A stretch of DNA of 20,000 nt from Craspedostauros australis (lineage: Eukaryota): assembly GCA_030167865.1 (NCBI GenBank), contig JALAGF010005345.1:56845-76844 (forward strand). Direction: 5' to 3'. Of this stretch, positions 1-20,000 are shown piece by piece. The first letter of the stretch is position 1. Every line of letters starts with the position of its first letter. The translations under genes and the position numbers were made by a program. Below the pieces are notes generated by a model, which had not been told where the DNA came from, made no database searches, and worked only from the letters and a program-made list of their open reading frames with translations.

Positions 1-39
1 GATACGATCTCTCTCGAGTTCGAGATACGGACGTAGCAT
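1..39 (-). CDS. Possible 5' end of a gene running off the window (MLRPYLELERDRI...)
   Basis: Minus-strand ATG at 39-37 in an ACC-ATG context after an A-rich leader (AACACAAGCAAAAAACTAAAGAGGACC). The frame is open to the window edge, but only 13 codons are visible. Confidence 0.25.
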   Translation of the reverse strand, partial: MLRPYLELERDRI

Positions 40-900
40 GGTCCTCTTTAGTTTTTTGCTTGTGTTTCGACTGGCCTTCGTACGCTTGAGAACACGATTG
101 AGGATCTGGTGTGTCGCTGCTGACATCATGTTCAACAACCGAATGAGGGCTGTGTGGCATTCTCGCTGCCACAGAAGACCGTTTGGAGTTCTGACCGTTT
201 CGTTTGTTCCGACTTGTCGCCTGCGTCTTTCAGCTCATCAAAGAACTTCAACTCGCATCAGTTCGAGATGACACACCAGCTCCATCTTCTTGTGTCCACA
301 CACCCAACAAAAGAGAGATCTTCGGACGATCAAACCCACAGAACGAACGAACGAGACAAACGACAGACCCGAAAGAGAGCATCCTCATCTTCCACCTTGA
401 GCCCATCTGTTGGAACATCGGTCACAAGGTTAAACGCATTGAGGCAACAACTCTCCAGAAGCGACAGTTGCGAGCAGAGTCCTCTGTGTACAAGCCATCA
501 TTCGTGCTCCATCGTGTCTCAGCATCAGAAGCCCCCACCAAGAAACTCTTTTTGTTGTCACGTGCGATTGCAGTGATCGTGCCGTCTTCAGCGACAGCGA
601 CAGCCACAGAAGGATCATCTTGTTCTCACTGGTCTCATTTCGAGAACACCGAAGAGACATTTGTGGCACCAACCTCGACGTCATCACCGCACGCACAACG
701 CAACGACGACAGCAGCAGCAACAGCAGCCTGACTATCGCTACTGCCTCTTGACAATCAGAGTCAACAGATCAAGATACATCACTCTGCACAAGCACACAC
801 GGTGATCTTGACAAACACAAACACAACTATACACACTAATCTCACCAACTCTCTCTGGAGCAACAAGAGCAAGAACAGACACAACACAAAGCAGCACAAG

Positions 901-2793
901 ATGAGGATCATACGCCGCAGAACGGTGCTCGCATCGACGGCGACCGTCATGCTCATGACGCCGTCTTCGACCGATGCCTTCCTTGCGCAGTACGCTTCCG
1001 TGCGGCTGCCGATGGCCGATCTATCTCCAGGTGCCACAGCAGCGCCCTCCTTTGCGACACCGTCGCAGAACGTCATCTGGGGAACGTCGTCGCCGCATCA
1101 CAGCCTGCTGCGCATGTCGGATGAATTCGATGGCACAGCGACGGAGACAGGAGTTACCAACGGAGCAACTACAAATGGCGCTGTGAACGGCGCGATCAAT
1201 GGTGCATCCAACGGCGCTCCAAATGGTGCTGCGGCTACTGCCACCATCGAGCCATCAGCACCTGCCACACCGCCCGACTACGAACCTTACATCCCGCGCG
1301 AGTTGGAAGACGCCCTGGCGCAACGTGAACAGACCATCTTCCTATACGAAAAGGAGATCGAGATGATTCGGAAGAAGCTTGAGATGAAGCAGATGGAATA
1401 CGAGGAGACGGTGGACACGTGGCGGTCGGAGAAGTCCAGCCTCGTCAACACCATCGCCGAATTCACCGACATGTTGACGCAGCGCGATGAAGAAACCAAG
1501 CGCCGCGCGCAGAATGAGGAGGACTACAAGCAACGCGAGAAGAAGCTCGAAGCGGAGATCGAGAACCTCACGCAGCAGCTGGAATCCGCCAAGGCCAAGA
1601 TGCAGCAGGAGACGGGGTCCGTGTCGGAGTTGAAGAAGACCCTGGACGAGACCACGGATCGGTTGGAATTCGATCAGATGGAGTTCGAAAAGTCGAAGAA
1701 ACAGCTCGAGAACAAGATCGAGGAAGAGCGCAAAAAACTCAAGAAGTTGGAGTCGCAGATAGGGGATAACGAGAAGGGGTTCGAGACGACGAGAAAGGAG
1801 CTCGTGGCGCGCGTCCAGCAGGAGGAGAAGAAGCTCGCCGCTGCGAAGCAGGAATGGGCGGAGGCCGAGCGGCAGATCCTGGCGCGGGAGCAAACCTTGC
1901 GCACGACCATCGAAGAGAAGGAACGCACCATCGAGGAACGCAACGACGCTTTGAAGGAAGAGAAGAAGAAGTCATCGCAGACGGCCGCCGACCTCAAGAA
2001 GGAGATTCAGGAGCAGAAGGACGAAGTGAGCCAGACCAAGGCCACGCTGCGTGCGGAGCAAGCCAAGTACGCCGGCATGAAGACCGAATTGGAGGAACTC
2101 ATCGAGAAGGAGCAGGCCGATCTCGTCAGCCTCCAAGCGGAGATGGTGCGGGAGAAGGAGCGATCCGCCACGGAACGTGAAACCCTCCAGAAGTCGCTGG
2201 ACAGCGAAAGCGAGGCCCTGGCGCAGATCCAGACCACCCTGGCGGCCGAACGGGAGCAATCCAACCAGCAACGCATCGACTACGAAGATGAAATCGTCAA
2301 GTTGGTCGACAGCCGCCAGAGGAAGGCACGTCAGATGGGCAGACGATTCGAGAAGATCCGCACCGAAATGACAGAACTGTGGCAAGGCGCCAAACGCGAT
2401 GCACGAGAGCGCGAGCGTCACCTCAACGCGAAGTACGAATCCAAACTGAGCGACTTCAACCAGCGCGTGATATCGCTGGAGATGCAAGTGTCCGCGTCGA
2501 CGGCCCAAAACGAGGATCTGTCCCAAAAGGTCGCGGAATTGGACAGCATGAACGTCAGTCTGCGTTCCGAAATCTCCACCTTGCAATCCACCATCGATGC
2601 CAAGGATATCGTGATCCAAGAGAAGACGGCCGTAATTCAACAGAAGACTGCTGTGATCGAGAAGTACGAGGGCAGCTACCGTCAGCTCGCACGATTGACG
2701 GTCCGTTTGGCAGGCAAGCGCATCCGCGGCGTGGGGTCGCGCATCCGGCGCATCATTCGGAACAAGCCCTTGCCGACCGATGAAGAACTGTGA
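901..2793 (+). CDS. Long coiled-coil protein (630 aa) with a probable bipartite plastid-targeting presequence; function unknown
   Basis: The long ORF 802-2793 has its first plausible ATG at 901, after an A/C-rich leader. The N-terminus MRIIRRRTVLASTATVMLMTPSSTDA-F resembles a signal peptide with Phe at +1 (ASAFAP-type), followed by an S/T/A/P-rich transit-like region and NGA repeats. About 450 aa of E/K/Q-rich heptad-like sequence follow, then a basic C-terminal helix. Strong GC3 codon bias. Confidence 0.85.
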   Translation: MRIIRRRTVLASTATVMLMTPSSTDAFLAQYASVRLPMADLSPGATAAPSFATPSQNVIWGTSSPHHSLLRMSDEFDGTATETGVTNGATTNGAVNGAINGASNGAPNGAAATATIEPSAPATPPDYEPYIPRELEDALAQREQTIFLYEKEIEMIRKKLEMKQMEYEETVDTWRSEKSSLVNTIAEFTDMLTQRDEETKRRAQNEEDYKQREKKLEAEIENLTQQLESAKAKMQQETGSVSELKKTLDETTDRLEFDQMEFEKSKKQLENKIEEERKKLKKLESQIGDNEKGFETTRKELVARVQQEEKKLAAAKQEWAEAERQILAREQTLRTTIEEKERTIEERNDALKEEKKKSSQTAADLKKEIQEQKDEVSQTKATLRAEQAKYAGMKTELEELIEKEQADLVSLQAEMVREKERSATERETLQKSLDSESEALAQIQTTLAAEREQSNQQRIDYEDEIVKLVDSRQRKARQMGRRFEKIRTEMTELWQGAKRDARERERHLNAKYESKLSDFNQRVISLEMQVSASTAQNEDLSQKVAELDSMNVSLRSEISTLQSTIDAKDIVIQEKTAVIQQKTAVIEKYEGSYRQLARLTVRLAGKRIRGVGSRIRRIIRNKPLPTDEEL

Positions 2794-2920
2794 TTCAGCC
2801 ACATGTTATCCATACCATACCATACACACGCACACACACATCCATACTCTATGATACATATGATACGGGTTCATCCCGTACCATGCATGCTTCATGTAAA
2901 GGATGTTCAATTCATTGCAG

Positions 2921-2936
2921 GAGAGAGAGAGAGAGA
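2921..2936. repeat. (GA)8 microsatellite
   Basis: Read directly from the sequence. Confidence 0.9.
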
Positions 2937-3539
2937 AGTAGGAACGAAACCGGCAATCAATGCGGGGAACTGTCCACACTGTGACGACGATCGCTGGGAG
3001 TGTTGCGTCGCAGATCACCAATGACACAACATAATACGAGTACTCTAGGCAAATTCTGTTTGTAGGTTCATGTCACCATCCACAACTACTCTACACTGCC
3101 ATCATCGGAGTTCCCAGCGCAATCTCTATGACGAGCAACAGAACATCCGAAGAGTTGTACTCTGCGTCTATGCCTGTGGATAGGCATTGGGCAGTATGGA
3201 ATGTTGACTACATCGACTAACTAGATTGTCCCTTGACTGATCCGACCGCTTCTCCTTCATTTCGGATCATCATTTTTCGGCCGTCCATCAGCCGCTCGCC
3301 ATTGCGATTTGCTTGGTTTGTTGCTCTCGTGTGAAATTGAGTTTGGGAAGCCAGCAAGGGGGAGCAATGCACACGGTTGGACTCTCCTCATACTTTGCCT
3401 GTGACAAACAACAACAAACACAAGCCGGACCAGAAGCAGTGGTGAGAACGACGAGGAGTGCAACTACTCTGCAAACAACAGACGACAGACAACAACGAAT
3501 AAACAAGCAGTGCCAATTGAAAGAGAGACAAGAAGAAAG

Positions 3540-5518
3540 ATGGCAGGCGGAAAAGGAGAGACGTTCCAGGAGAGATCCAAAGGAAAGGATGTCAGAACAT
3601 CCAACATTGTGGCTGCAAAGGTGAGTTCAGGTGCTGCAGAGGAGAGGAGAGAAGAAAAGAGCATGGTGGGGCTACCATCCGTGTGTATCATTCCTCGTGG
3701 ATCTTGACATTGGCTTTCACGGATGAACACATGGACGAACGGAGGCTTGCGTGATAGTGTGGGCTACGCTGTTCATGCTCTTTTCCAGTCATGTACGAGT
3801 ATTGCAAAATGCAGTAGCTGTCGCCTTCGTTTCAGTTCCGTGGCCACCTCTGTCTCACCAATGCTGCTGCTCTGTTACTCCTACCTCTGCAACTGCAACT
3901 AAAAACATCACTGCATACATCATTCCTTTTCTTCGTCTGCGTGCTGTGTATCATGCATTGATTCATGCTGCGCAATGACACCATGCACTCAATATTCCCT
4001 TCCAATATCCAGGCTGTTGCCAATGCTGTGCGGACGTCGTTGGGACCACGCGGAATGGACAAGCTGATGCAACTGGCGGATGGCGAGATTTTGATCAGCA
4101 ATGACGGAGCCACCATCTTGAGCAAGATGAGTGTTATGCACCCCGCCGCAAAGATGCTGGTGGATCTCTCCAAATCGCAGGACATCGAGGCAGGTGATGG
4201 AACGACCACGGTCGTGGTGCTCGCTGGTTCGCTGTTGAATGTATGCTCGTCGTTGCTGTCCAAGGGGATCCACCCAACTGCCATCGCCAGCTCCTTCATG
4301 CGGGCGGCCGACAAGGCATGCGAGATCCTCGAGGAGATGGCCATACCCGTCGATCTGGCGGATCGCAACGCACTCCTCAGCGCAGTCGAAACCTGCCTTT
4401 CCAGCAAGGTCGTTGCCCAGAATTCTGAAATCCTTGCGCCCATCGCCGTCGATTCCGTCCTGGGGGTGCTCTCGGACATCAACACGGCAAAGACCGTCGA
4501 TTTGAGAGACATTCGTTTGGTGCAGCAGGTGGGAGGCACCGTCGATGACACCGAGCTGGTGAAGGGTCTGGTGCTCACGAAGGGATCCACCAAGACAGCG
4601 GGTGGACCATCCAGCATGAGCAACGCGAAGATCGGTTTGATTCAGTACTGCCTCAGCGCCCCCAAGACCGACATGGACAACAACGTCGTGGTGTCGGACT
4701 ACGCGGCCATGGACAGAATCCTTCGCGAGGAACGCAAATACATCCTGCAGCAGTGCAAAGTCATCAAAAAGTCAGGATGCAACGTGCTTCTCATCCAGAA
4801 ATCGATTCTGAGAGACGCGTACAACGAGCTCTCCCTGCACTTTCTTGCCAAGATGGGAATCCTCGTCGTCACCGACATCGACCGACCAGAGGTGGACTTC
4901 ATCTGCCGCACGCTCGGATGCACTCCGGTGGCGCACCCTGATCAGATGAGCGCCGACAAGCTGGGATCCGCAGAGCGAGTTGCCGATGTTCTCATGGAAG
5001 GTGGATCGACGAAGGTCGTCAAGTTCACCGGCGTCAAAAATCCGGGCAAGACCATGACTGTGCTGATGAGAGGTTCCAACGAGTTTGTGTTGGGTGAGGC
5101 CGAGCGCAGTTTGCATGATGCCCAGTGCGTGGTGCGGTCGTTGGTGAAGAAGCGTGCGCTCATCGCAGGTGGCGGTGCCGGAGAGACGCAGACATTTCTG
5201 AAGCTCCAAGAGTACGCCCGCGAACTGACCGGCATGGATGCCTACTGCTTCCAGGCCTTCGCTGATGCGCTCGAGGTGATATCGTACACGCTGGCAGAGA
5301 ACGCTGGAATGAAGCCCATCGAGGTCGTGACGGAGCTGAGAAAGCAGCACGCGGAGGGCATCGTCGGTGCAGGCATCAACGTCAAGAAGGGCAAGGTTTC
5401 GGACATGTACGAGCTGAACGTCGTGCAACCTCTGTTGGTTTCCACCTCCGCGATCCAGCTGGCCACCGAAACTGTCTGCATGATCATGAAGATCGATGAT
5501 CTCGTCGTCGTGCAGTAG
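3540..5518 (+). CDS. CCT4: T-complex protein 1 subunit delta (CCT/TRiC chaperonin); exon 1 3540-3620, intron 3621-4012, exon 2 4013-5518; 528 aa
   Basis: Exon 1 encodes [27 protein letters not shown] and ends at AAG|GTGAGT. The acceptor CCAG| at 4012 resumes in phase with [17 protein letters not shown]. Chaperonin motifs SNDGATIL and GDGTTT are present, as are delta-typical [28 protein letters not shown] and [11 protein letters not shown]. Confidence 0.95.
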
Positions 5519-5554
5519 GAAATAGTGTAGTCCAATCCATAAACGCTTTCCAGT

Positions 5555-5574
5555 GAGAGAGAGAGAGAGAGAGA
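5555..5574. repeat. (GA)10 microsatellite in the CCT4 3' region
   Basis: Read directly from the sequence. Confidence 0.9.
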
Positions 5575-5803
5575 TGCACATGAAAGTCGTACAAAAGAGT
5601 CTAAACTGGGAGACTGATTACTGATTGTAGTAGGGGTACGCATGTATTTCAGTGAAGGACAATTCTATCGCTCTTCAGTCTCTTATCAGAATTGCCTGTC
5701 CGCATCTTCAGCGAGACGTGCTCGTAGGTCACTGATTGAAGCAAGCAGTGCTGCATCTTTCAGATAGATACTCGTACTCTTCCTCCAGAACCGTACGTGC
5801 AAG

Positions 5804-6519
5804 TCAATGACCTACAGTGACCGCGGCACACACAATCACCATGTCGTCGTTAGTGTCGCCCAACCGCTCAATGGCAATTCCGCTGGGCGCGATCATGCCA
5901 CCATCCTGAATCTGAAATCGCACCGAACCGTACGGGAAAACGTCGCCCACCTTGGACAGATCCAGCGAGTCACGGTACTTGGCGGGCACCGCCAGAACGA
6001 CATCCAACCGCAGGTTCTCATACCCGCCCGGCACGAGCCGACGAATGGAAGGGATGGAGTTGAATTCGATGGCGTTGCGGCATGCGCGGACTGCAGATGC
6101 AATGTAATGTGAGTGGTTGTGTTGTTTTGGGTTGGAATTCAGCGCAATGGTTCATGCAGGAGAATTGCTCTCTTGAGTGCTGCAGAGTCGCTCTCACCTG
6201 CCGCTTTGGTTGCATTTTGACCATGGGAATCATTGCCAAATCCGCATTCGATGAAGAGGATCTGTTCCACGTGTGGTTCGCCTTCCCCTCTCTCCCATGT
6301 TGGCAAGGATGAAGAGGAAGACATGCTTGCGATGGTTGTGGGGATATGCCCCGTGACGGTGCGTGTCGAATGGGTAGGATTTAGACTGAAGCCTGCTGTC
6401 GGTTGAGGACAGATGAATGCTGCTAACAAGAGCAATGGTAGAAACAGAGATACGCGTGGCGGTGGGTGTGACGGCAATGCAGCTTGGTGCCGAAAGGATC
6501 GTCGGCTGATGGATTGCAT
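5804..6519 (-). CDS. Lin0512-family conserved hypothetical protein with a probable plastid-targeting presequence; exon 1 6519-6198, intron 6197-6091, exon 2 6090-5804; 202 aa
   Basis: Splicing G|GTGAGA ... CTGCAG|TC gives LFIECGFGNDSHGQNATKAAVRACRNAIEFNSIP...LAVP...VFPYG...IQDGGM...DDMVIVCAAVTVG, matching the Lin0512 family pattern as I recall it. The N-terminus has a hydrophobic signal (LFLPLLLLAAFICPQPTAG-F) with Phe at +1 and an S/T-rich transit-like region. Exon lengths sum to 609 nt, in frame. Confidence 0.85.
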
Positions 6520-7114
6520 TTGAGTTGCCTCGAGGGTTGTTCACGGAGCAGAATCGGTGGATGTTGGGTGAATGGCTGAGTGATGGCGTCGGGTTGATGG
6601 ATGTGGACGACCCGTGTATCCGCATGGAAATGACGTCGATGCAGATCGAGATGACGTTGATCGAGGCCGCCTCTGCATGGGAATGAGGGTGGTGTGTCAT
6701 GTGACGGATGATGCCGAAAGATACTCAAGAAAAGATCGTTCGGCAAGTGATGGAACTCATGATTTGCATTCCCACGTGAACACGAAACAGATCGTGACTG
6801 AAACCAAAACAACACGAAACACCACCAAATAATGAACCACGCGGGACTGGGAGATGAAGGCGAACGAAACGAACAACAACGAAACACGCACAAGGAAAGA
6901 GAGACGATGACGCAAACTGAAGCGTTCCCGAGATCTTCGACAAACCACTCCATTCAACACGACCAGACACACAAGAACATCAGTCCATAGCCGTACCACC
7001 CTTTTCGTGGTATTGTTATATGTTGTGCGTACGTGTGCTCCGACTAGATTCAAGCACGCAATCCAACAACTCCACTCGACAACACTCTGCAGGAAGCAAA
7101 AGGACGAGAGAACC
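6520..7114. promoter_or_regulatory. Divergent intergenic region (putative bidirectional promoter) between the Lin0512-like gene and the beta-oxidation enzyme
   Basis: Head-to-head gene arrangement about 600 bp apart with A/C-rich leader sequence. No specific motif identified. Confidence 0.35.
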
Positions 7115-9310
7115 ATGGTCGCAACTATCGTTGACTTCAGCACGGTGAGCGCCAACCCGCTGAATCCCGTGGGCGCCAAGCTGAGATGGGCAGTGTGGAA
7201 CGCGTTGGAGGCTGCGGAGAAGGATGACAGGATCACCAGCCTCATTCTGACGGGCGGCAAATCTGGCAACTTCTCCTCCGGTGCGGACATCACCGAATTC
7301 GCGAAGGTGGTCGACACCGAACAAAGCGACCTCGCGTTGGTACATATCATCAAACGGATCGAGAACTTCCCCAAGCCCATAATTGCGGCGGTGGATGGCG
7401 TCGCATTCGGCGGTGGCTGCGAACTCACCCTCTGCTCCCATTACCGCGTGGCCACGAAGACAGCCAGTCTCTCGCTGCCCGAGGTTCATGTCGGCGTCAT
7501 CCCTGGGGGAGGTGGAACCCAGCGTCTGCCACGCCTCATTGGAGTGGCAAAGGCCTTGGACATGATCATCACGGGCAAGCCGGTGAATGCGGTGACGGCC
7601 CAGAAGCTCGGCCTCATCGATCAGGTGGCCAAGCCCGGGGAGACCTTGATGCAGTGCGCGCAGCGATGGGCCGACTGGGCGGAGCTCATGCCGCTGGACG
7701 ACAGACGCGTTGGCCATCGCCAGATCAAGGAATCGAAGGCGGAGCTGGCCTCCATCTTTGCGGCAGTGGAACGAAAGCTCCCCTCCGAACAGATGGGCGG
7801 AGCAGGTGTGCGTGCTGCGCTGAGCGCCGTCAAGGCATGCATTCTGCCCATCGAAGAAGGCAACGCTATCGAGAGCAAGCACTTCATTGATTCCCTCCTC
7901 CATCCGCAAGGCGTGGCCAGGCGGCATGCTTTCTTCGCCGTCCGCAGAGCCCAAAAGCCGTTGGGCAAGGCGCCCAAGGACCATCCCTTCCTCTCCAAGT
8001 CCTATGGATCCTACACCGTCGGTGTTGCGGGCGCTGGTCTCATGGGGAGCGGCATTGCCATGGTGTTGCTCCAGGCTGGATTCAAGGTCATCCTCGTGGA
8101 TGTCTACAAGCAGTCCCTTGACAAAGGCATGGCATTCCTCACGAAGACCATCAAGACGCACGCTCAGCGTGGCAAGCTGTCGCCAAAGAAGGCGTCGGCC
8201 ATGATGGCTTCCTTGACCGGAAGCGAGAAGCTCGAGAGCCTCGCACCGTGCTTGCTCGTCGTGGAGGCGGTCATCGAGAGCATGAAGATCAAGAAGAAGA
8301 TCTTCACATCGTTGGACAAGATCACTCCGCCCAACGCCATCCTGCTCAGCAACACCTCGACGCTGGACATTGATGAGATGACATCGGTTCTGTCGATGGA
8401 TCGTCGTTCCCGATTCGCAGGCTGGCACTTCTTCTCTCCCGCCCACATCATGAAGCTCGTGGAGATCGTCCGTGGGAAGGCCACATCGATCGAAACAGTT
8501 GCCGTCCTCCAGCATCTCACGAAGCGCATCAAAAAGACGGGCGTCGTGGTGGGCAACTGCGATGGCTTCGTGGGCAATCGTCTCCTAATCCCGTACGGCG
8601 CAGAGACGACCTTCCTGCTGGAGCAGGGCGTTGCATCAGTGGCATCCGTCGATAAGGTGTTCCTCAGGTTCGGCATGGCGTTGGGTCCATTCCAGATGAG
8701 CGACCTCGCAGGCCTCGACATCGGATACAACATCCGCAAGGAACGCGGTTGGACCAAGGTCGGCAACACGCCGGCCAAGAACCGCCCCGAGCGGTACCCC
8801 GAACTCGCCGATGTCATCGTGGCCGACCTGAGGCGATTGGGGCAGAAATCAGGCAAGGGATGGTACACCTACGATCCCCGCATCGGCAAGGGCAGGATGC
8901 CCCTGCCCTCCTCCGAAGTTGATGCGCTCGTGGCACGATTCGCCAAGCCCAACCAGGCCCCTTTCAAGCCGGAGCAGATGATCGAGCAGGTCATGTGCCC
9001 CCTCGTCAACCTCGGCTTCCTCTGCCTCGAGGAGGGCATCGCCGAACGCCCCTCCGACATTGACGTGGTCTACCTCTACGGATACGGCTGGCCCGTCTAT
9101 CGTGGTGGCCCCATGTTCTGGGCCGAAAACGACGTAGGCTTGGAGAACATTCTGGCATCATTGAAGAAGCTCTCCGCCATGTACCCAACCACCGATTACT
9201 TCGTCCCCAGCAAGCTGCTGCAGCACTGTGTCGAGCGCGGCGTCGCCGTCGAAGAAGGGTGCAAACAGTTGCGCAAAGGCGGTCTGGACAATCCATTCTC
9301 CAAGCTGTAG
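7115..9310 (+). CDS. Peroxisomal fatty-acid beta-oxidation multifunctional enzyme (enoyl-CoA hydratase / 3-hydroxyacyl-CoA dehydrogenase; MFP/EHHADH/FadB-like)
   Basis: Crotonase motifs FSSGADI, GGGCEL and PEVHVGVIPGGGGTQRLPRLIG; Rossmann motif GAGLMGSGIA; HAD motifs VEAVIE, SNTSTL, HFFSPAHIMKLVE and GFVGNR; C-terminal PTS1 SKL. The first in-frame ATG is at 7115; a short upstream exon is possible (CTGCAG acceptor ending at 7092). Confidence 0.93.
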   Translation: MVATIVDFSTVSANPLNPVGAKLRWAVWNALEAAEKDDRITSLILTGGKSGNFSSGADITEFAKVVDTEQSDLALVHIIKRIENFPKPIIAAVDGVAFGGGCELTLCSHYRVATKTASLSLPEVHVGVIPGGGGTQRLPRLIGVAKALDMIITGKPVNAVTAQKLGLIDQVAKPGETLMQCAQRWADWAELMPLDDRRVGHRQIKESKAELASIFAAVERKLPSEQMGGAGVRAALSAVKACILPIEEGNAIESKHFIDSLLHPQGVARRHAFFAVRRAQKPLGKAPKDHPFLSKSYGSYTVGVAGAGLMGSGIAMVLLQAGFKVILVDVYKQSLDKGMAFLTKTIKTHAQRGKLSPKKASAMMASLTGSEKLESLAPCLLVVEAVIESMKIKKKIFTSLDKITPPNAILLSNTSTLDIDEMTSVLSMDRRSRFAGWHFFSPAHIMKLVEIVRGKATSIETVAVLQHLTKRIKKTGVVVGNCDGFVGNRLLIPYGAETTFLLEQGVASVASVDKVFLRFGMALGPFQMSDLAGLDIGYNIRKERGWTKVGNTPAKNRPERYPELADVIVADLRRLGQKSGKGWYTYDPRIGKGRMPLPSSEVDALVARFAKPNQAPFKPEQMIEQVMCPLVNLGFLCLEEGIAERPSDIDVVYLYGYGWPVYRGGPMFWAENDVGLENILASLKKLSAMYPTTDYFVPSKLLQHCVERGVAVEEGCKQLRKGGLDNPFSKL

Positions 9311-9648: not shown

Positions 9649-10001
9649 CGAATGATTCTGGCTTGCTTGCGTGCTCAGGACGCGAAATGAAGCACTCGCA
9701 GGCACACAGATGACAGTCTTCTATTGCTTATNTGNTGTTGGTGTATTGCTGATACACTCCTTGTTGTGAACCAGATTGTGACCGCATGCCATGAATCCAA
9801 CAAAGACACATGCTCTGTTCGTTTTTTCCCTTTGTGTTGTTTCAGCCACAAACACTCCACCTTGGTTGCTTATGACTGTACGGTCACAGAATCTTTGACC
9901 AATACGAGCTACGCGACTCGTTTGACCCTAAAACTCGCTCTGTCCCCTCGTTGAATTGGCATATGCTGGCTGTATGCCTGACTGCCATCTGTGCCTATAC
10001 A
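9649..10001 (-). repeat. 3' LTR copy A, lacking the outer ~18 bp and joined to host-side sequence
   Basis: Near-identical to 10155-10508 (about 10 substitutions and 1 indel by eye) and preceded on the minus strand by the same PPT (10002-10013). Confidence 0.85.
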
Positions 10002-10136
10002 ACGCCCCTCATCGTTGTAGNNNNNNNNNNNNNNNNNNNNNNNNNNNNNNNNNNNNNNNNNNNNNNNNNNGGACACGAGGGAATATGGACTGAGGGTGAA
10101 GCCGGATCCATTGGAGAACGATGCATGGAAGATTGT

Positions 10137-10508
10137 TGTATACACCGACAGCGACGAATGATTCTGGCCTGCTTGCGTGCTCAGGATGCGAAGTGAAGCA
10201 CTCTCAGGCACACAGATGACAGTCTTCTATTGCTTATCTGTTGTTGGTGTATTGCTGATACACTCCTTGTTGTGAACCAGATTGTGACCGCATGCCATGA
10301 ATCCAACAAAGACACATGCTCTGTTTGTTTTTTTCCCTTTGTGTTGTTTCAGCCACAAACACTCCGCCTCGGTTGCTTATGACTGTACGGTCACAGAATC
10401 TTTGACCAATACGAGCTACGCGACTCGTTTGACCCTAAAACTTTCTCTGTCCCTTCGTTGAATTGGCATATGCTGGCTGTATGCCTGACTGCCATCTGTG
10501 CCTATACA
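10137..10508 (-). repeat. 3' LTR copy B (372 bp)
   Basis: Bounded by the inverted termini TGTATA...TATACA and adjacent to the PPT, about 100 bp after the pol stop. Confidence 0.88.
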
Positions 10509-10520
10509 ACGCCCCTCATC
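10509..10520 (-). promoter_or_regulatory. Polypurine tract (GATGAGGGGCGT) for plus-strand priming
   Basis: Purine-rich run immediately upstream of the LTR's TG on the minus strand. Confidence 0.75.
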
Positions 10521-10611
10521 GTTGTAGTACGCGCGCAGGAAAAACGGCATTTTGCCTCCTAAAAAACCTCGCGCGTTCGCTACCCTTCATGCGACTCCCC
10601 ATGGCTATCTG

Positions 10612-12099
10612 TTAGTACAGAAACCTACCCAAAAGCGTCTCCCGTTTTGGGGCTGCCATGGTCTTGGTGAACACATCTGCCAGATTGGTCAGTGTGTCCT
10701 CTTTCGCGACTCTAATGATCCCACTTGCCACAGCTTCCCTGCACCGGTGATATGATATGCTGTGATGCTTCTTGGAGAGTGTGGAGTGGGGTGTCGATGC
10801 ATTCTTGTACACCGCTTCATTGTCACAGAACATATTGGTCGGTCCCTCCAACGGGACGCCAAACATCCTGAGTTTGTATCGTAGCGACGATACCATTTCC
10901 ACTGCTTGCCGCATTGCTGTGAACTCCGAACCAAACGTGGATGTTTCGACTGAGTTTTGTCGTTTGCTGTACCACATGACTGGCGCTCGATTCATGAAGA
11001 TCNNNNNNNNNNNNNNNNNNNNNNNNNNNNNNNNNNNNNNNNNNNNNNNNNNCTTCTTGGAGAGTGTGGAGTGGGGTGTCGATGCATTCTTGTACACCGC
11101 TTCATTGTCACAGAACATATTGGTCGGTCCCTCCAATGGGACGCCAAACATCCTGAGTTTGTATCGTAGCGACGATACCATTTCCACTGCTTGCCGCATT
11201 GCAGTGAACTCCGAACCAAACGTGGATGTTTCGACTGAGTTCTGTCGTTTGCTGTACCACATGACTGGCGCTCGATTCATGAAGATCAAGATGCCTGTCT
11301 GCGACCTGCGGGTTGCTTTGTCTGCTGCGTGACTGGCATCCACAAAGCAGTGGGTGGAAGCAACGTTTCCTCTGGGCTTGGGTGCATTNGTGGGTATCTG
11401 CTCTTCGGCGTCTCGGTAGAAATCTTCCCATTCAAACGATTGGAATCGATCCTCCGAAATCCTTGGGTGGTCTGGATCCATCAACATCGAGCGCTTGCTC
11501 GTGTTCTTGAGGTACCCAAAGATGTGATACACCTGCTGTAGATGTCCCACCCTTGGCATCGCCAAGAACGAAGATAGGAGGGAGACCTCGAGCAAGATGT
11601 CGACCTGTCCGATCTCGATCGCCCACCGCAGCACACCAATCAGCTCTTGGAATCGTTGTAGCCCATCTGCCTTGAGCTCTGCTGTAGTATNNNNNNNNNN
11701 NNNNNNNNNNNNNNNNNNNNNNNNNNNNNNNNNNNNNNNNAAAGATGTGATACACCTGCTGTAGATGTCCCACCCTTGGCATCGCCAAGAACGAAGATAG
11801 GAGGGAGACCTCGAGCAAGATGTCAACCCGTCCGATCTCGATCGCCCACCGCAGCACACCAATCAGCTCTTGGAATCGTTGTAGCCCATCTGCCTTGAGC
11901 TCTGCTGTAGTATCCTCAGCTGGATGATATCCAGATGTGAATGGTGTCTTGCATCCCGATGATAGTCGCATACCTTCTTCGGACAGCTTTGACTCCACGT
12001 TCTCGATAGCCGCCTTGCAGTACTTCTCTGATGAAATGCGCCAGCACATGGTGCCGTTCTCGTTCGCCTTCTTGTCGAGCGATGCTCCAAGGTACATAT
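10612..12099 (-). pseudogene. pol: pol 3' part: RT C-terminus and RNase H (with assembly-duplicated segments)
   Basis: Motifs MYLGA, FQELIGVLRW, HCFVDASHA, SQTGILIF, ETSTFGSEF, MFCDNEAV, KKHHSISYH and NLADVFTK; stop TAA at 10612-10614. Confidence 0.92.
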
Positions 12100-14230
12100 C
12101 CATAGTGATTTTTTTTCTGCGTCAGGACGCAAAACAGCCACTTTTTGCAAGCTGACGCAAGCTAAGAATGTAGCACTGTTTGTGTTTGCGTCAGGACGCA
12201 TCCGAAAAATACCGTGGCAATTTAACACGGAGAGTAGTCGTGATAGACTCGCCCGATCCATGCGAAAAAGATAGCTCCCAAATGCCACCTCTGTTGACTG
12301 TGCTTCTTTGGACATCGAAGGCCTCTCACGCGTTTTCTTCGTGTTGTTTTCTTCATTGGGCAGATATCTGTCGTCTCTGCCCAAGGTACCAGTGGATAGT
12401 GAATATAATACAATAGTAAATAGATACTGTCACTTATGATACACACCATTACACATAGTACCCTCTGCCTATTGAATATACTTTATTTGTGTCGAGAAGT
12501 ATAGTGGTATGCATTTTCATTAGTGTGTCCATCAGCTCCGTCGCGCAATATTCATTCCTGTTGCAAATCATCTGCTGCTCTTCTTGGCTTGATCGGTAGC
12601 AACCATGATTGCAACTGCGCCATTCACAAGGCATTTTTGTTCAGATTTCTTGCCATCCGTACAGCCGCAACAGTCGCCGGGTTCACTCAGTGAACATTCA
12701 TCTGTATTGGTAGTTCCATCGGGCATGTTCTTGTCTGTCTTGCAAGCGAAAAGCTCAATCTCATTCCATTCCCCAGACCTATCCTTGCACTTGCTGGATT
12801 CGGACAACTACTATCCATGAGCCTCTGCCAAAACAATATGAGGGTGAGATTTACAATGGTCCTATGTGAAGTGCACTTGCTCTCTTCAGTGTGGCATTCC
12901 GATTTTGGCATGGTAGATGCTGTTCATATCGTGCATCCATCCATCCATCCATCCATCTTAGAATCAAATAGGTGTCTTCTCATGTGTGGGGCTTTGCATG
13001 ATAGGACTGACGAATCACATGGCGATGGCACTCTCAACTACAACTTTTCCATCCACAACTTGATGAATCTCATCATTCATGTTGGCATCCATCCTCCTGC
13101 GAATGAAAGCACAAACTGAACAATGAAATGAAACAGGGACTTGGTCATGTGCATTCCATGGAGGAAAGGAACACATATGCTGGCATGAATGTATCCAACA
13201 TCTACGAAAGCAAGAGTCTACAGTGATCTGATACATTTCCATGGCGCGTCATTCCGTCCTCCTTGCTCGATACACCTCCTCCACCATCCCTAGATTGGGA
13301 GTGCCGATATGGCTGAGATCGCAGACGGAGATATCGCCAGACAGATGGGCATCCAAATCCACCACAGAATGAAGCAGCTCGGAATGTGGTATCCTGTTTA
13401 CGTCAGTCTTCATTGACCTGTTGATACTGATACCATTCGAGCCAATCCTACAATGGTTGGGCCATTGTGATGGAACATCCAATGTCAACAACTCAGCTGA
13501 GGAGCACAACAAATGCATACAACTCACATGCAGATTGGCACTCGTGTGTGTGTCTCGAAAGGGACTGCCATGTGCACGAATGCTGACGCTCAACATACAT
13601 TCGAATAACATTGAATATACCTATTCCATGAAGGAGCACAACTTAGTTGATGGCAGCGATCAAGGCACATGGGCAGCCACTGAAGATATGAATACAGCAC
13701 TGGATACATTCATAGTAACTGGAGCAACCACGTGACGACACGAGGAGGGAGCTGAGAGGGTCGCACGTTCGACCAACATCGAAGAAATGAAAGGAATCAG
13801 TTGAACATTGCAGCCACCGGATACCTGTGGGTTTCAAATAAAGACTGTAGGTTTTTCCTTGGCAGTTATATTGCACGAAAGAGTTGGAAGAGGCAGCTTC
13901 CTATTCATAATCACTCTCCAAACAACAACAAGCAAAAATATAGTGTCTGGGATGGAATGCACACAAAAGCATGCGATTTTGTGCAGCGCAACAAACAACA
14001 CGAAGAATCGGGTGGTGGCATGAGAACCCAAAACAACACGAAGAAACACGCGATGTGGGAAGGGTGTTGTTTGCCATTTAGTCGGACGAGTCTATCACGA
14101 TTAAACGTCGCGACAAATCGCCGCGCTATTTTTCGTTTGCGTCAGGACGCAACAGTTCACGCACACCGCTAGTAAAATTCTGCGTCCTGACGCAAGGGGG
14201 GTCCTCTATCGTGGGGAAAAATCACTATGG
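12100..14230. mobile_element. Non-autonomous TIR DNA transposon with piggyBac-like ends (2131 bp) inserted in the copia RT
   Basis: Perfect 14-bp TIRs CCATAGTGATTTTT (12100-12113) and AAAAATCACTATGG (14217-14230), with ATAT on both sides (12096-12099, 14231-14234). Removing the element and one ATAT restores KVEPPDMYLGA. Subterminal TGCGTCAGGACGCA palindromes lie at 12118, 12187, 14138 and 14181 (the last inverted). No transposase ORF inside. Confidence 0.9.
12934..12957. repeat. (CATC)6 microsatellite inside the nested element
   Basis: Read directly from the sequence. Confidence 0.9.
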
Positions 14231-17200
14231 ATATCAGGTGGCTCGACTTTGTCCCCTTTCAGCTTGAACACAGCTGAGATATTGGATATGACTTGCTTGG
14301 GTTGATGGCTGATTGCCATCACATCGTCGACGTAGCACAGCACGATTTCATAGTATTCGAATCCGTCTGGCTTTGCTGCTGGTCGTAGCCATACGTCAGG
14401 ATCTGCCTGCGACGATCTGAATCCGCTATCATGCAGAACGCCGGCCAGTTTGGCCCTGAATGCAGCCCCGGATGACTTCAACCCGTACAGCGCCTTCTTC
14501 ACAAGCATGATCTTTCCTTCTTCAGCTGCGAATTCTGGTCCTGCTCTTGTCCAGATTCTCTCGCGGCAATCTGCCGTGAGGTAGGCATTCTGAATGTCGC
14601 ATGCCATGACATCCAGGTCGTTCATTGCCGCAATGGTCAATGCGATGCGAACCGAATCTCTGGATACGACGGAGGAGTATGTGATCGATGATGGCGTGGA
14701 TGTCTTGTGTCCCCCGGCGACCAGTCGGGCCTTGCGTCTAAAATTCTCGCCGAGCTTCACATCGAATATCAGGTGGCACTTGATCTCCTGGTATCCGTTG
14801 GGTATGTCAGATTGATCCCCTTCGAACACCTCGAATGCTGGCCTGACGTTCTTCATCTCCTTCATGATCGAATCCCACCACAGGGTATTGCCGTTTCCAC
14901 GGTCGACCTGCTTCGCTTCCTCCACCGACTTTGGCACGCGAACACCATACTTGTGAGTTCGAACCCAATACTTGGATTTGACCTTCGCGAGAATGCGCTT
15001 GCGCTTCTTCAACACGAAGGGAACCCACCAAGCAAATGCTGGCTCCATTGCAATGCGATTGTCCACTGCATACTCAGCCAGCTGTACTGGGTATGAGTCC
15101 TTGACATCCTTCAATGCATTCCACGTCGTGCTGCCGTCTTTCCACTGAATGAGAATNTCCCACCCAATGGTTGTTTCACGGCGCCTCTTCACTCCATTCT
15201 TGGCAGTGATGAAGGCATTCTGCTGAGTGATGGCACTGGCATCCTTGCGATGATCGATGATCTCATCGATAAGCACGTGCCGGTTGCCTTCTTCGTCAAT
15301 CTGTGCGAATAAATTCTCCGCAATGACGTTTGCTGCNNNNNNNNNNNNNNNNNNNNNNNNNNNNNNNNNNNNNNNNNNNNNNNNNNCAACCGCGTATCCA
15401 TGATTGGGTTGGTGGCCGCCGTCCCAATGGGTTTGCCGTCCTTGTCGCGAAGCCGCTTTGTGACGCGAGCAAATTCCGGATACTCTCCCCCGCGATCGAT
15501 AGATAGCTCCATGTAGAGGTATCCATCGAACGTATCAGGGTCGAAAGCGTCATTGGCCTCCGCGACGTCCCCGTTGCTGAACGTGCGGGAGAACTCGGCC
15601 GCAAAGTCGGGATCGTCGTCATTCAGCTCGGCCCATGCGGAAAGCTGCGGCCTCCCTCCCGTGACCGCCAGCCGCTCCTCTTTGAAACGCCGAGCTATTG
15701 CAGCATCATATGCCACGAATTTCTCCTTGTGGGCATCGATACCCATCTCAACAGTGGTCACCCGCTGCACCATAGTGCGCGCCATGGGAATGACAGATGC
15801 TGGCAAAACCCAATATGACATCAACGATCCAGTCGTCCGTGCCACACCAAGGAATCGCCCCACCTGTATTTCACCCAACCCCGCGTTCGGCTTGAACCAC
15901 ACTCGATCGTAGAATCCGAAATCGAGGTACTCCGAAATGTCCGGCGTCTCACCAGTCAATTGCTCAATCGGTATGCGTCCCTGTAAGCCTCCTGCATTGC
16001 TGGCTGTGCGCTGCATGATGGCAGCGAGGTGGGTCAACCCGTAGCTCCACAATCGTCTGGGACAGTTCGTCCTGAACATGACCCTGTACCACCGCCGTCT
16101 CAACTCCCGAATGACACCTTCCGCCGGGTTCTGGTTGTGCCGCTCAACTTCCGAGACATGCAACTGAATGTTGTACTTGCGACATCGTTTCCAGAATTGG
16201 CTGTGTGGTCCAACCTGCTCCGGCGCACCGTCTGCGATGAGTATATCCGGAGCCCCATAGTCACGGACGAAGGTGTCNNNNNNNNNNNNNNNNNNNNNNN
16301 NNNNNNNNNNNNNNNNNNNNNNNNNNNACTCACGAATGACACCTTCCGCCGGGTTCTGGTTGTGCCGCTCAACTTCCGTGACATGCAACTGGATGTTGTA
16401 CTTGCGACATCCTTTTCGGAATTGGCTGTGCAGTCCAACCTGCTCCGGCGCACCGTCTGCGACGAGTATATCCGGAGCTCCATAGTCACGGACGAAGGTA
16501 TCGAGGGCCTCATGTGCCTCCGACTTCCGGAACATGTGGTATGCCTCAACGAAGAATTGAGGAGATGCGAAGATCTGCGAGTACTTGTGCCCATGTAGAT
16601 CCTCACATCGGGCATACATNGTATCCGTTGCCATANTCCCCTGGATCCGCTTTGGGATGTACATGCGATCGGCACGNTAGCGCCGAGCCAACGGCATGAC
16701 CGCCGATCGCACGAGGTTCCGAGTCGTAGCTCGAAGAGTAAGCCGTGCTTGCTCGAGGCTGAGGTGCCACCGATCGCTGAGCTCTTCGGCCGTCATCTTC
16801 GAGTGCCGATCAACCGACAGAAACGATCTCGGTACCTGGATCTCGTCCTCTGTGATGGGACCAGGGATATGGGCATCGGGGTTGTCCGTCATCTCCGTTG
16901 ACACCGCAGGCTTGCGGTCTATCGCCTTCTCATCCACACGCACACTCCGAATCAGCCGTTGGTTGAAATGGCAATTGATGGATCCATAATGGCNNNNNNN
17001 NNNNNNNNNNNNNNNNNNNNNNNNNNNNGCATGCGTGTTTCGGACCTCGATCTCTTCCTGTTCGTGGTATGGGATGACTGGGAACCGGACGCGTTCTGGG
17101 TTCCAAGGTGTCGGGCTGGACAGTACAATGTGTGGTAGCTGGCTCAGATCTGTGGATGATGGCCTCCATGTGTCGAGGTATATGGTGGTACCCTCTGATT

Positions 17201-18103
17201 GCAGGCACGCCGCAAAACCCTGCTCGTCATGTCGTATGACCATGGGCTTCCCAGCGTATGGGTTGTCCTGTACGTCAACTCCATGGTGCCGCAGTTGGTT
17301 TGGATTGACCAACGANNNNNNNNNNNNNNNNNNNNNNNNNNNNNNNNNNNNNNNNNNNNNNNNNNNNNNNNNNNNNNNNNNNNNNNNNNNNNNNNNNNNN
17401 GTCACTATGGGCACATCTTTGACTGGATCATAGCTGTCAGTGTATGGTGACACGTCACAGCACCTGTCAGTATAATGTAGCACCACGCACTGTCGGCCGG
17501 CAACAATGGTGTCGGCATGAGAGTCCAGTTCAAGTCTGGACTGTACCTCATGGCCATCGTGCGGATTGTTGGCATGTATGGTGCCAACACGTCGTGATCT
17601 TTGGGACGTACGAAACACGGATATGCAACTGGTGTACTCGCAANNNNNNNNNNNNNNNNNNNNNNNNNNNNNNNNNNNNNNNNNNNNNNNNNNAGGCTCG
17701 GCATCGACAATGCCTCGTTGAACACGAGTATGTACCGTCTGCCTGCAGCGGACGTGTATCCGGTTGCGGCCGTCACTATGGGCACATCTTTGACTGGATC
17801 ATAGCTGTCAGTGTATGGTGACACNNNNNNNNNNNNNNNNNNNNNNNNNNNNNNNNNNNNNNNNNNNNNNNNNNNNNNNNNNNNNNNNNNNNNNNNNNNN
17901 NNNNNNNNNNNNNNNNNNNNNNNNNNNNNNTGCGGATTGTTGGCATGTATGGTGCCAACACGTCGTGATCTTTGGGACGTACGAAACACGGATATGCAAC
18001 TGGTGTACTCGCAAGAGTGTCGTTGGATATGTGAGTAACAGCGTCTTAGATTACGAATCCAGATACCGAACATCACCACGAACGTGCACTCTCGCCAACA
18101 CCA
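14231..18103 (-). pseudogene. pol: pol 5' part: aspartic protease, integrase, chromo-like segment and RT (cut by the insertion; N gaps)
   Basis: Protease ELDSHADT; integrase LSDRWHLS..., ATD / ADGA / QNPAEG (D,D-E), ETPDISEYLDFGFYD, GRFLGV; RT CHLIFDVK, RKARLVAGGH, DIQNAYL, KALYGLKSSG and YVDD. Confidence 0.93.
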
Positions 18104-18106
18104 TCA
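18001..18106 (-). promoter_or_regulatory. Candidate gag-pol UGA readthrough signal (stop, 8-nt spacer, extended stem-loop)
   Basis: Single in-frame TGA at 18106-18104. GCGAGAGUG (18095-18087) can pair with CACUCUUGC (18019-18011), and UGGUGU (18103-18098) with ACACCA (18006-18001). Confidence 0.55.
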
Positions 18107-20000
18107 GCTTCCGGTGTTCTGTCGCTTGGAGTCCCTTCCACCAAACGCNNNNNNNNNNNNNNNNNNNNNNNNNNNNNNNNNNNNNNNNNNNNNNNNNNNN
18201 NNNNNNNNNNNNNNNNNNNNNNNNNNNNNNNNNNNNNNNNNNNNNNNNNNNNNNNNNNNNNNNNNNNNNNNNNNNNNNNNNNNNNNNNNNNNNNNNNNNN
18301 NNNNNNNNNNNNNNNNNNNNNGTCCGTTGCGCTTCGTGCCCCTGGCCTTCAGGATCTCTTCGCGGTGTTGCTGCACCTCGGCGCTGAACCACTGCTTTGG
18401 ACTGTACTTGCCGATGTACAAGGATCCATCAGCTGTGATGGCGCCCACGGCTGGTGGTGATCCTTGCGATGTGGTGCGACCGTTGGAGGTTGTTTGAGCG
18501 ACTTGNNNNNNNNNNNNNNNNNNNNNNNNNNNNNNNNNNNNNNNNNNNNNNNNNNCTCGCCAACACCATCAGCTTCCGGTGTTCTGTCGCTTGGAGTCCC
18601 TTCCACCAAACGCTGTGCCAGCTTGGTCGTGTCGATCGGTTGCTGGCTGCCCACGATCCATGGCGGGCTCGTCGTTGGTATCATGATTGCGCTTCTGTTG
18701 TGCGGATGCGGATGACTGGAGTTGGCTCACTTGTCTCTTGAGTTGCTGGACCTGTCGCTGGAGGTTCTGCTTGCCCTTCCCTCCGCGTCCGTTGCGCTTC
18801 GTGCCCCTGGCCTTCAGGATCTCTTCGCGGTGTTGCTGCACCTCGGCNNNNNNNNNNNNNNNNNNNNNNNNNNNNNNNNNNNNNNNNNNNNNNNNNNNNN
18901 NNNNNNNNNNNNNNNNNNNNNNNNNNNNNNNNNNNNNNNNNNNNCCGTTGGAGGTTGTTTGAGCGACTTGTCGGTTGCCCCGCATGCTGGTTGAATGCTC
19001 AGGTATTTCCTTCGCAAACTCCAAGAGGACTGTCTTGTAATTGGTTGGGTTGCGGCTGTAGTCCAGCTTGAGTGTGGACTTGAGCATTTGCAATCCCAGT
19101 GCTTGGATTGTCTGGAAGATGGTGTCAACGATGTCTTGGTCATACATCGGTTGGTTGCAGTTGTCAAGTTCGTCCACTGCACGTTGCAGCTTGGCCGAGT
19201 ACTGTTCGAAGGACAGGTGGCGCTCGTTGTTGTAGCGAATGGTGCGAAGGACTTGCTTGGCGGCTGTGACCCTNGCCTCGACGCTGGCTGGGTTGTCGTA
19301 CCTTTCAGCCAGTGCCTTGAAGCAACGCCTGCCGTCGCGCGCCCTGATGAATGGCTTGATGTAGGTGTACGCGTCAGAATCCTCTGCGATGTTCTGAAGG
19401 ATGATGCGGTGCACTGTTGCTGTGTCCAGGCGATAGGTTTCGCCGGTCAGCGGCGCTAGCGTGAGAGCGTTGTGTTCCCAGCTGAGCTCGGGTTCGTCGG
19501 ATGTCTCCGCCTGCTCTCTGATGACATAGCTGAGTGGGATGCCTTTGGCACCAATGATGGCCTCAAGGGTGCTCACAAGTTCATCCACCCAGCGTCGCCA
19601 TTGCGCGCCTGACTTGAGNNNNNNNNNNNNNNNNNNNNNNNNNNNNNNNNNNNNNNNNNNNNNNNNNNNNNNNCGCCGGTCGTGCCGTGCCTTCGCTTCC
19701 AGTATCTCGGAAAAGAATTCCTGACGCGTGGTGTCATCGTCGAACTCAACCTCGAGATCCAACCGCACTTGGTCTTGCACCCAATACATGAGGGCGATGA
19801 GCAGGCGCCTCGTCGCTCTGGAGACATGGAAGGCGTCTTGACCTCTGCGAGAGTACTGGTTGCAAGCGGTGTCGATGGCTTCCGCTGTCTCATGTTGCAA
19901 CCCTTCGAGTCCAACATTCTGCGGCACGAAGTCGTCGCGGACGATGTTGCGGTGGGGAATCGAGTCAAACCCCAACCAGGTGAAGATCTGGGTCAGTGTG
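18104..20000 (-). CDS. gag: gag (5'-truncated by the window; 3' end assembled twice, stops at 18569 and 18104)
   Basis: Open frame from the window edge (TLTQIFTWLGFDS...) through IGAKGIPLSYVIRE, RDGRRCFKALAERYD and YNNERHLSFEQYSAKL, typical of diatom copia gag, to AGTAFGGRDSKRQNTGS*. It lies upstream of the protease. Confidence 0.85.

Follow-up and report, generated by a model that had tools for sequence, protein, structure and literature searches.

A UGA codon followed by a positionally conserved stem-loop at the gag-pol junction of a diatom Ty1/copia retrotransposon and its relatives: candidate programmed readthrough

Copia-type retrotransposons reportedly carry gag and pol mostly as a single open reading frame (ORF). 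We describe here a Ty1/copia-type element on the minus strand of a 20,000-nucleotide (nt) stretch of Craspedostauros australis DNA (contig JALAGF010005345.1, positions 56,845 to 76,844; this whole stretch is hereafter the window). In this element gag and pol lie in the same frame, separated by a UGA that is followed 8 nt later by a predicted RNA stem-loop, so that the junction is a candidate site of programmed stop-codon readthrough. Related layouts have been described elsewhere. In Tca2, a Ty1/copia element of Candida albicans, gag and pol are in frame across a UGA with a putative pseudoknot on its 3′ side, and the gag-UGA-pol RNA serves as the source of Pol (Forbes et al., 2007, PMC2194720). 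The fission-yeast Ty3/gypsy elements Tj1, Tcry1 and Tosmo1-3 have an in-frame TGA between gag and pol, and in the Tj1/Tosmo elements the octamer GAA-TGA-CT is strictly conserved at the gag stop (PMC10085805). Murine leukaemia virus (MuLV) makes Gag-Pol by readthrough of a gag-UAG-pol junction; its signal, of Beier & Grimm type III, combines UAG-G with a compact pseudoknot (PMC3159437).

A further class, marked by an extended 3′ stem-loop, was described by Firth, Wills, Gesteland & Atkins (2011, PMC3159437) for alphaviruses, tobra-, peclu-, furo- and pomoviruses, coltiviruses and Drosophila kelch. According to that account, CUA or CGG often follows the UGA, the combination with CUA forming the classical leaky context of type II, and UGA-UGG and UGA-AUG are recorded as exceptions. 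A spacer of 7-9 nt (12 nt in Sindbis virus) separates the stop from a stem of ∼10-14 base pairs (bp), at times with a 1-nt bulge. The stem encloses a large and poorly conserved loop, and two peaks of nucleotide conservation mark its arms. For both MuLV and the alphavirus class, the same authors discuss the proposal that the helix acts at the mRNA entrance channel.

In the window, the codons at the junction read CAG AAC ACC GGA AGC TGA TGG TGT TGG CGA GAG TGC on the minus strand, with the stop at 18104-18106. The last 14 codons of gag (AFGGRDSKRQNTGS, 18107-18148) lie on the same contig as the stop and the stem-loop. The gag ORF itself was listed at 18569-19999, open at its 5′ side at the end of the window, with N gaps inside it and with the C-terminus ...AGTAFGGRDSKRQNTGS. 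Past the UGA the frame is open as WCWRECTFVVMFGIWIRNLRRCYSHIQRHSCEYTS...GTIHANNP, reading WCWRECTFVVMFGIWIRNLRRCYSHIQRHSCEYTSCISVFRTSQRSRRVGTIHANNP without a stop, and the overlapping contig 17401-17643 extends it to the protease active-site motif LDSHADT (17528-17508), whose D is codon 70 after the stop. Translation of the minus strand bore out a first-pass annotation of this DNA, in which gag ended in ...QNTGS-UGA and pol continued in the same frame up to the protease motif. The annotation had also taken the UGA to be present in two separately assembled contigs, and this did not hold. The scaffold ends share 58 identical bases (18091-18148 = 18556-18613), the last gag codons being identical to 18572-18613 and the bases of the stop recurring at 18566-18568 in the overlapping contig end. 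Because these contig ends overlap at one locus, the two TGA readings are not independent, and it is the relatives of the element, not the duplicated contig end, that speak against an artefact of sequencing or decay.

The RNA that follows the stop was predicted to fold into a stem-loop (18001-18103) composed of lower, main and imperfect inner helices and an apical hairpin. Counting from the U of the UGA, the main helix pairs GCGAGAGUG (nt 12-20, 18087-18095) with CACUCUUGC (nt 88-96, 18011-18019) in both the minimum-free-energy (MFE) and the centroid folds. Its 9 bp include one G-U, its 3′ arm lies 68 nt downstream of the 5′ arm and it closes an 85-nt stem-loop. Between the stop and this helix lies an 8-nt spacer, UGGUGUUG (18096-18103), whose first 6 nt are able to pair with 18001-18006 as a weaker lower helix (UGGUGU, nt 4-9, with ACACCA, nt 101-106). 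CGUU/AACG and the apical GGAUU-CGU-AAUCU are further pairings of the MFE and centroid folds. Every pairing that the first-pass annotation had named was recovered in the MFE fold, with the 8-nt spacer. The 106-nt stretch had an MFE of -38 kcal/mol as compared with a shuffle mean of -28.3 (z = -2.75), and 2 of 200 dinucleotide shuffles folded as well; a 121-nt stretch of the same junction gave a z of -3.11. When 8380 positions across 10600-20000 were scored, the 9-bp helix was in the top 1.04%. The stem-loop is wholly translated in the pol frame, as WCWRECTFVVMFGIWIRNLRRCYSHIQRHSCEYT.

Forty-two homologues of the window Gag were found at E ≤ 1e-3, with 20-40% identity; most were 468-496 residues long and covered 92-100% of the query. 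In their alignment (A1) a C-terminal AG[DT]AFGG[KR] motif was conserved, and nearly all of the proteins, the window Gag among them, ended a few residues later. A profile of 39 Gag sequences matched 5138 proteins at E ≤ 1e-3, and 596 at E ≤ 1e-30, in a search space of 1.84 billion cluster representatives (50% clustering). The pattern A[GR]xxF[GWE] was matched in 99 of 186 homologues scanned; two matches were internal and false, leaving 97, and the 87 homologues lacking the motif were mostly fragments. Termination within 22 residues after the motif was seen in 92 of the 97 motif-bearing homologues. The other five ran further, P0127 by 29 residues, P0169 by 45 and P0027 by 47, while P0008 (...ELDSHADT...) and P0130 (...ELDNHADT...) continued in frame into the protease. 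The more divergent P0154 and P0178 are also continuous Gag-Pol proteins. In these stop-less homologues (P0008/P0193, P0130/P0195, P0154 and P0178), Gag runs in frame into a D[STN]HAD protease; this minority suggests repeated switching between single-ORF and readthrough layouts. One of the Gag homologues was in the transcriptome MMETSP0786 of Thalassionema frauenfeldii, a hint of expression. Many relatives were on contigs of ∼6.2-6.5 kilobases (kb), a similarity in length that would fit the assembly of entire elements, or of full-length transcripts, each as one unit.

Scanning of metagenome contigs with the Gag alignment yielded 10 loci, of which seven span the junction (L001, L002, L003, L005, L006, L008 and L010) and three fall short of it; viral contigs and genome contigs scanned with the same alignment gave no relatives. 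The seven represent four lineages (L001 with L006; L002 with L003 and L010; L005; L008), or five with the window. Gag identity is ∼57% within L002, L005 and L008 and ∼36-44% when this group is compared with L001; the window Gag is 28-45% identical to the Gag of all the others. TGA closes gag at each of the seven loci, and from the codon that follows pol is open in the gag frame. CGA or TGG in place of the stop, or loss of a common frame, had been named beforehand as outcomes that would speak against a recoding signal. All seven relatives have TGA, and pol is in frame 0 in 7/7 loci and in the four fused homologues. Frameshifting by -1 or +1 was rejected as a route to pol, pol being in frame 0.

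Downstream of the stop, a homologous D[ST]H[AT]D motif is found in frame at codon 69 in L001, 76 in L002, 78 in L005 and 91 in L008. The linker between stop and protease is therefore 69-91 codons long across the five lineages, and always in frame. In L002, L003, L010 and L005 the junction TGA is the sole in-frame stop over 314-488 gag codons and at least 1327 pol codons; these copies look intact, and several are on contigs of 6.3-6.5 kb. TGA is also the terminator of pol in L006 and in the element that lies upstream in L008, and otherwise gag and pol contain no TGA in frame. The codon after the UGA is CUG, CUC or CUA in three of the five lineages, in line with the type II motif UGA-CUA (PMC3159437), but UGG in the window and AAU in L008, and the context GAA-TGA-CT is present in L002, L003 and L010. 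Two of the loci are structurally irregular. Positions 1-1215 of L008 hold the 3′ end of the pol of one element, and a second, apparently degenerate copy follows (1755-4386); in L006 there is a frame change near the end of pol (3540-4064). Both L006 and L008 retain the TGA and the hairpin.

Folding placed a hairpin just after the stop in every lineage. As compared with 200 shuffles, its z was -2.75 in the window, -3.44 in L001, -6.15 in L002, -4.45 in L005 and -2.85 in L008, values that are flattered because the spans were chosen from the folds. All five lineages have a contiguous helix whose start is separated from the UGA by 7-8 nt (offsets 10-11). It is 9 bp long in the window, 7 bp in L001 (5′ arm GGCGUGC), 11 bp in L002 (GUGCAUUGUGG), 9 bp in L005 (GUGCAUUGC) and 7 bp in L008 (GGGCAUC), and in most lineages it is accompanied by a weaker lower helix that uses the spacer. 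Although they occupy the same position, the window and L001 arms show no sequence relationship to the arms found in the L002 group. As to the earlier question of whether the stem is conserved at all, the helix is thus retained 7-8 nt from the stop even where its sequence is unrelated. The position was scored with a contiguous-helix statistic (helices of 5 bp or more whose start lies 7-9 nt past the codon, relative to all positions of the same element). The fractions obtained were 0.0031 for L001, 0.0010 for L002, 0.0086 for L005, 0.038 for L008 and 0.0104 for the window. Fisher combination over three independent lineages gave 3.6e-5 (from 5e-6 to 1.3e-4, according to whether L002, L005 or L008 was taken to represent their group).

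Pairing was counted in an alignment of L002, L005 and L008 alone (A4); when the window and L001, or flanking sequence, were included (A2, A3), MAFFT misaligned the hairpins. RNAalifold applied to A4 found the helix unaided, pairing columns 12-22 with 78-88, together with the lower helix. In A4, 91% of cells pair, as compared with 33-60% when the partners are slid by 1-3 columns, and four pairs change on both sides (e.g. U-A, U-G and C-G at columns 18/82 and 20/80). Covariation for the helix is suggestive only, and is without significance because just three sequences were alignable. Invariant positions account for 12/22 of the 5′ part, 5/54 of the loop and 12/18 of the 3′ arm, which amounts to two peaks of conservation. 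The loops of L002, L005 and L008 differ in length by 21 and 12 nt, in each case a whole number of codons. Near-identical copies differ at 30 positions in 4800 nt (L002/L003/L010) and at 11 in 3460 nt (L001/L006); none of these differences falls in the hairpin, which is uninformative at such counts.

The peptides encoded between stop and protease are rich in Trp, Cys, Leu and Gly and are not conserved between lineages, while the end of Gag and the protease are conserved. The linkers of the stop-less homologues are shorter, ordinary and basic, and have no Trp/Cys-rich stretch. The proposal in the first-pass annotation that the odd Trp/Cys-rich linker reflects constraint on the RNA fits these observations, in which helix arms are conserved and linker peptides are not. 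A simple complementarity scan, which involved no pseudoknot folding program, showed that in each of the five lineages the pairing between loop and downstream sequence did not exceed that of shuffled sequence (the observed value was reached by 89-289 of 300 shuffles).

We consider it likely that programmed readthrough of the UGA, aided by an alphavirus-like 3′ stem-loop, makes Gag-Pol in these elements. The view of the junction as a structured recoding signal, already put forward in the first-pass annotation, draws its support from comparison with relatives and not from experiment. We infer that bypass of the stop would work as follows. Most ribosomes would terminate at the UGA and yield Gag; a minority would decode it by means of a near-cognate tRNA and continue, yielding Gag-Pol. 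Such rare bypass would set a low ratio of Gag-Pol to Gag. With the stop in the A site, a helix 7-8 nt after the UGA would be placed at the mRNA entrance of the ribosome, and the stem-loop may favour readthrough from that position.

Several observations weigh against this proposal. In most Gag homologues it is the end of the protein that was seen, and the stop codon and the frame of pol were read from DNA in four related lineages. Both UGA-UGG in the window and UGA-AAU in L008 depart from the classical leaky motif. The second copy in L008 looks degenerate, its Gag match starting at 1755, its ORF at 2467, and its pol stopping after 410 codons; the window copy is itself interrupted by an insertion. 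The contiguous-helix statistic was picked after the folds had been seen, its 7-9-nt offsets following the literature, and L002, L005 and L008 count once for the helix because they share ancestry. When fixed 100-nt windows were used, the junction ranked 35/453, 5/591, 21/551 and 155/443, which is unremarkable in some lineages. When the enclosed energy was tested for pairs that start 6-9 nt past the stop, the fractions were 0.22, 0.006, 0.14, 0.13 and 0.067, with a combined p of 0.003, which is moderate support. The pairing values of A4, an alignment of three sequences only, were matched by 43 of 500 column shuffles. Finally, the Tca2 junction alone drove no readthrough in S. cerevisiae, and a minor promoter lies inside it (Forbes et al., 2007, PMC2194720).

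This behaviour of Tca2 also favours an alternative that we regard as unlikely, namely that pol is expressed without canonical readthrough, as has been argued for Tca2, by internal initiation, from a junction promoter that yields a pol-only RNA, or by termination-reinitiation. The hairpin would then serve, for instance, in RNA packaging or dimerisation, in ribosome pausing for Gag assembly, or as a promoter or internal ribosome entry site. However, a helix 7-8 nt 3′ of a stop has the geometry of a recoding stimulator as laid out by Firth et al. (PMC3159437). An in-frame AUG does occur 5-25 codons past the stop in each lineage, and in the window the stop overlaps an AUG (UGAUG). The latter AUG is nevertheless out of frame and runs to a stop after 17 codons, and the other lineages have no UGAUG; termination-reinitiation at this site was accordingly rejected. 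Moreover, pol is in frame 0 in all five stop-bearing lineages as well as in the four fused homologues. The frame has been kept despite indels in the hairpin loop, upstream of or around the downstream AUGs, which argues against independent initiation of pol, a process that needs no shared frame. Splicing that removes the stop from a share of transcripts, with Gag-Pol made from the spliced RNA, is a much poorer candidate, and we hold it to be very improbable. In Drosophila copia, Gag versus Gag-Pol is regulated by splicing, and in L001 a GU spans GAG|UGA. However, the 30 nt that precede the window stop contain no GU, nothing resembling a conserved 5′ splice site is seen at the stop or ahead of it in L002, L005 and L008, and the whole post-stop stretch is kept open, in frame and coding. 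The intron envisaged in the first-pass annotation as a means of removing the stop would thus have no conserved 5′ splice site upstream of it.

We give hardly any credence to the UGA being a chance or decay mutation of one dead copy (TGG or CGA to TGA), with the fold arising by chance in a G/U-rich stretch. The window copy, with a 2.1-kb insertion in it, is free to decay; its two TGA-bearing 'contigs' are one locus, and the z of its hairpin (-2.75) is modest. Against this, TGA stands at the homologous site in 7/7 loci from four other lineages, 92 of the 97 motif-bearing Gag homologues end there, and the helix has the same offset in every lineage. Because Gag identity is 28-57%, the loci cannot be copies of one recent mutant. 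Judged by these relatives, the window UGA is not a decay mutation. Decoding of the UGA as a standard residue, either as selenocysteine by way of a selenocysteine insertion sequence (SECIS) or through reassignment of UGA in the host, seems to us just as implausible. The stop is UGA in every lineage, and diatoms have selenoproteins. Stem-loops close to a selenocysteine UGA are also known, e.g. in SEPN1, with a 6-nt spacer (PMC3159437). But at E ≤ 1 no SECIS was matched by Rfam in the seven loci (36,464 nt, both strands), several of which lack their 3′ ends, and the only hits were three chance-level matches to RMST_1, none of them near the junction. UGA is a true terminator and not a general sense codon in these hosts, because the junction TGA is the sole in-frame TGA in ∼1800 codons and pol itself ends in TGA in L006 and L008.

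Stimulated readthrough of the kind proposed has most in common with the class of Firth et al. (PMC3159437), for UGA, spacer, stem, variable loop and conservation peaks at the arms are all seen here. The setting differs, being a retrotransposon gag-pol junction in diatoms, known from sequence alone, and not the replicase or coat extension of an RNA virus. The loops between the main arms are 25-67 nt here, as compared with ∼100-270 nt in the class as described, and some of the helices have just 7 bp. As in some alphaviruses, a minority of lineages are without the stop (P0008, P0130, P0154 and P0178). Tca2, as described by Forbes et al. (PMC2194720), belongs to the same superfamily and likewise has in-frame gag and pol split by a UGA and a predicted 3′ RNA structure. 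Tca2 is, however, a single fungal element, whereas the present layout is conserved across a very large family, in which the predicted structure is a plain stem-loop and the complementarity scan gave no sign of a pseudoknot. The 8-nt spacer before the structure is shared with MuLV, in which Gag-Pol is made through readthrough of the gag terminator, as would be the case here. The stop in the window is UGA and not UAG-G, the predicted structure is an extended hairpin, and the simple complementarity scan gave no signal for a pseudoknot of type III. L002, L003 and L010 carry the exact GAA-TGA-CT of the Tj1/Tosmo elements, whereas the window has AGC-UGA-UG. Those elements are gypsy and not copia, and the account of them describes a short linear context with no conserved downstream helix (PMC10085805).

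By its copia-type reverse transcriptase and by the order protease, integrase, reverse transcriptase and RNase H, the element in the window is classed as a Ty1/copia (Pseudoviridae) long terminal repeat retrotransposon of a diatom, on the minus strand from ∼10600 to the end of the window; its 5′ end falls outside. By tblastn with L002 pol, the protease, integrase region and reverse transcriptase lie at 14227-17597, over overlapping scaffold pieces, and the C-terminal part of pol, with the RNase H region and ...ADVFTK..., at 10612-12100. Window pol is collinear with L002 pol from the protease to the C-terminus. The protease motif (17508-17528) precedes the reverse transcriptase, which carries YVDDVM at 14334-14317 and matches Pfam RVT_2 (E 3.1e-20). 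Pfam gave no match to the window Gag, and by itself made no call for the integrase region in window pol.

Between the reverse transcriptase and RNase H regions, pol is split by a 2.1-kb insertion (12096-14234). The tblastn alignment of L002 pol jumps from 14227 to 12100, and 2.1 kb (12101-14226) separate residue 1089 from residue 1087. The insertion ends in perfect 18-nt inverted repeats (12096-12113 and 14217-14234) and holds several subterminal palindromic repeats like TGCGTCAGGACGCA. Its G+C is lower, at about 0.45, and it has no ORF longer than 141 amino acids. Most likely it is a DNA transposon of the non-autonomous kind that has landed inside the retroelement. Because it interrupts pol, the window copy is probably inactive, though the assembly is too fragmented for the rest to be judged. 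The copy still keeps the gag-pol junction of its family.

Ordinary host genes occupy positions 1-9300 of the window, all on the plus strand: a long coiled-coil protein (733-2793), the CCT-delta chaperonin subunit (∼4001-5518), and a bifunctional ORF of ∼800 amino acids resembling enoyl-CoA hydratase/3-hydroxyacyl-CoA dehydrogenase (6911-9310). The gap between the latter and the end of the retroelement is within ∼1.3 kb. CCT-delta is 74-88% identical to its diatom homologues, and its named top matches are all from diatoms (Bacillariaceae sp., MMETSP diatom transcriptomes and Mayamaea). The host is for this reason a diatom, as the first-pass annotation had it. From ∼9649 to 20000 the window is a scaffold of 22 pieces with runs of N between them. 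Many adjoining pieces share overlaps of 26-373 bases at 94-100% identity (e.g. 17560-17643 = 17931-18014), the assembler having set overlapping or gap-filling contigs side by side, unmerged. The true order on the minus strand is piece 18847-18556, a 58-nt overlap, piece 18148-17931, an 84-nt overlap, piece 17643-17401, a 53-nt overlap, and piece 17824-17694. Because overlapping pieces were left unmerged, some of the ORFs and apparent duplications in 9649-20000 are artefacts.

Like the CoDi elements (Maumus et al., 2009, PMC2806351), the element in the window is a copia-order element of a diatom. The main text of that paper contains neither 'readthrough' nor 'read-through' and no recoding signal, and has 'recoding' solely in the title of a cited reference; its supplementary per-element table may list an in-frame stop. 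In Llorens 2009, neither 'readthrough' nor 'stop codon' occurs in the text, and our literature search brought up no account of readthrough, or of a recoding structure, in the copia elements of diatoms. The Tca2-like layout is here kept across lineages that are 28-57% identical in Gag, with a helix at the position of viral stimulators. A broader claim, for and against which we find the balance about even, is that a clade of thousands of Gag clusters (50% identity) of marine and diatom copia elements sets its Gag:Gag-Pol ratio by UGA readthrough, driven by an extended stem-loop of the alphavirus kind 7-8 nt past the stop. This would be the first structured, conserved signal of the kind in Pseudoviridae and the first programmed readthrough in stramenopiles, and it would have been lost repeatedly in sub-lineages with fused gag-pol.

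If readthrough does occur, structured readthrough signals would extend to the retrotransposons of a major group of marine algae. The junction would offer a compact natural cassette with which expression ratios might be tuned in diatom engineering, and the stop-less relatives would form a natural series in which the origin and decay of readthrough signals could be compared. ORFs of these elements that appear as 'gag-only' or 'pol-only' in diatom genomes and marine metagenomes would then be one translational unit and not broken genes.

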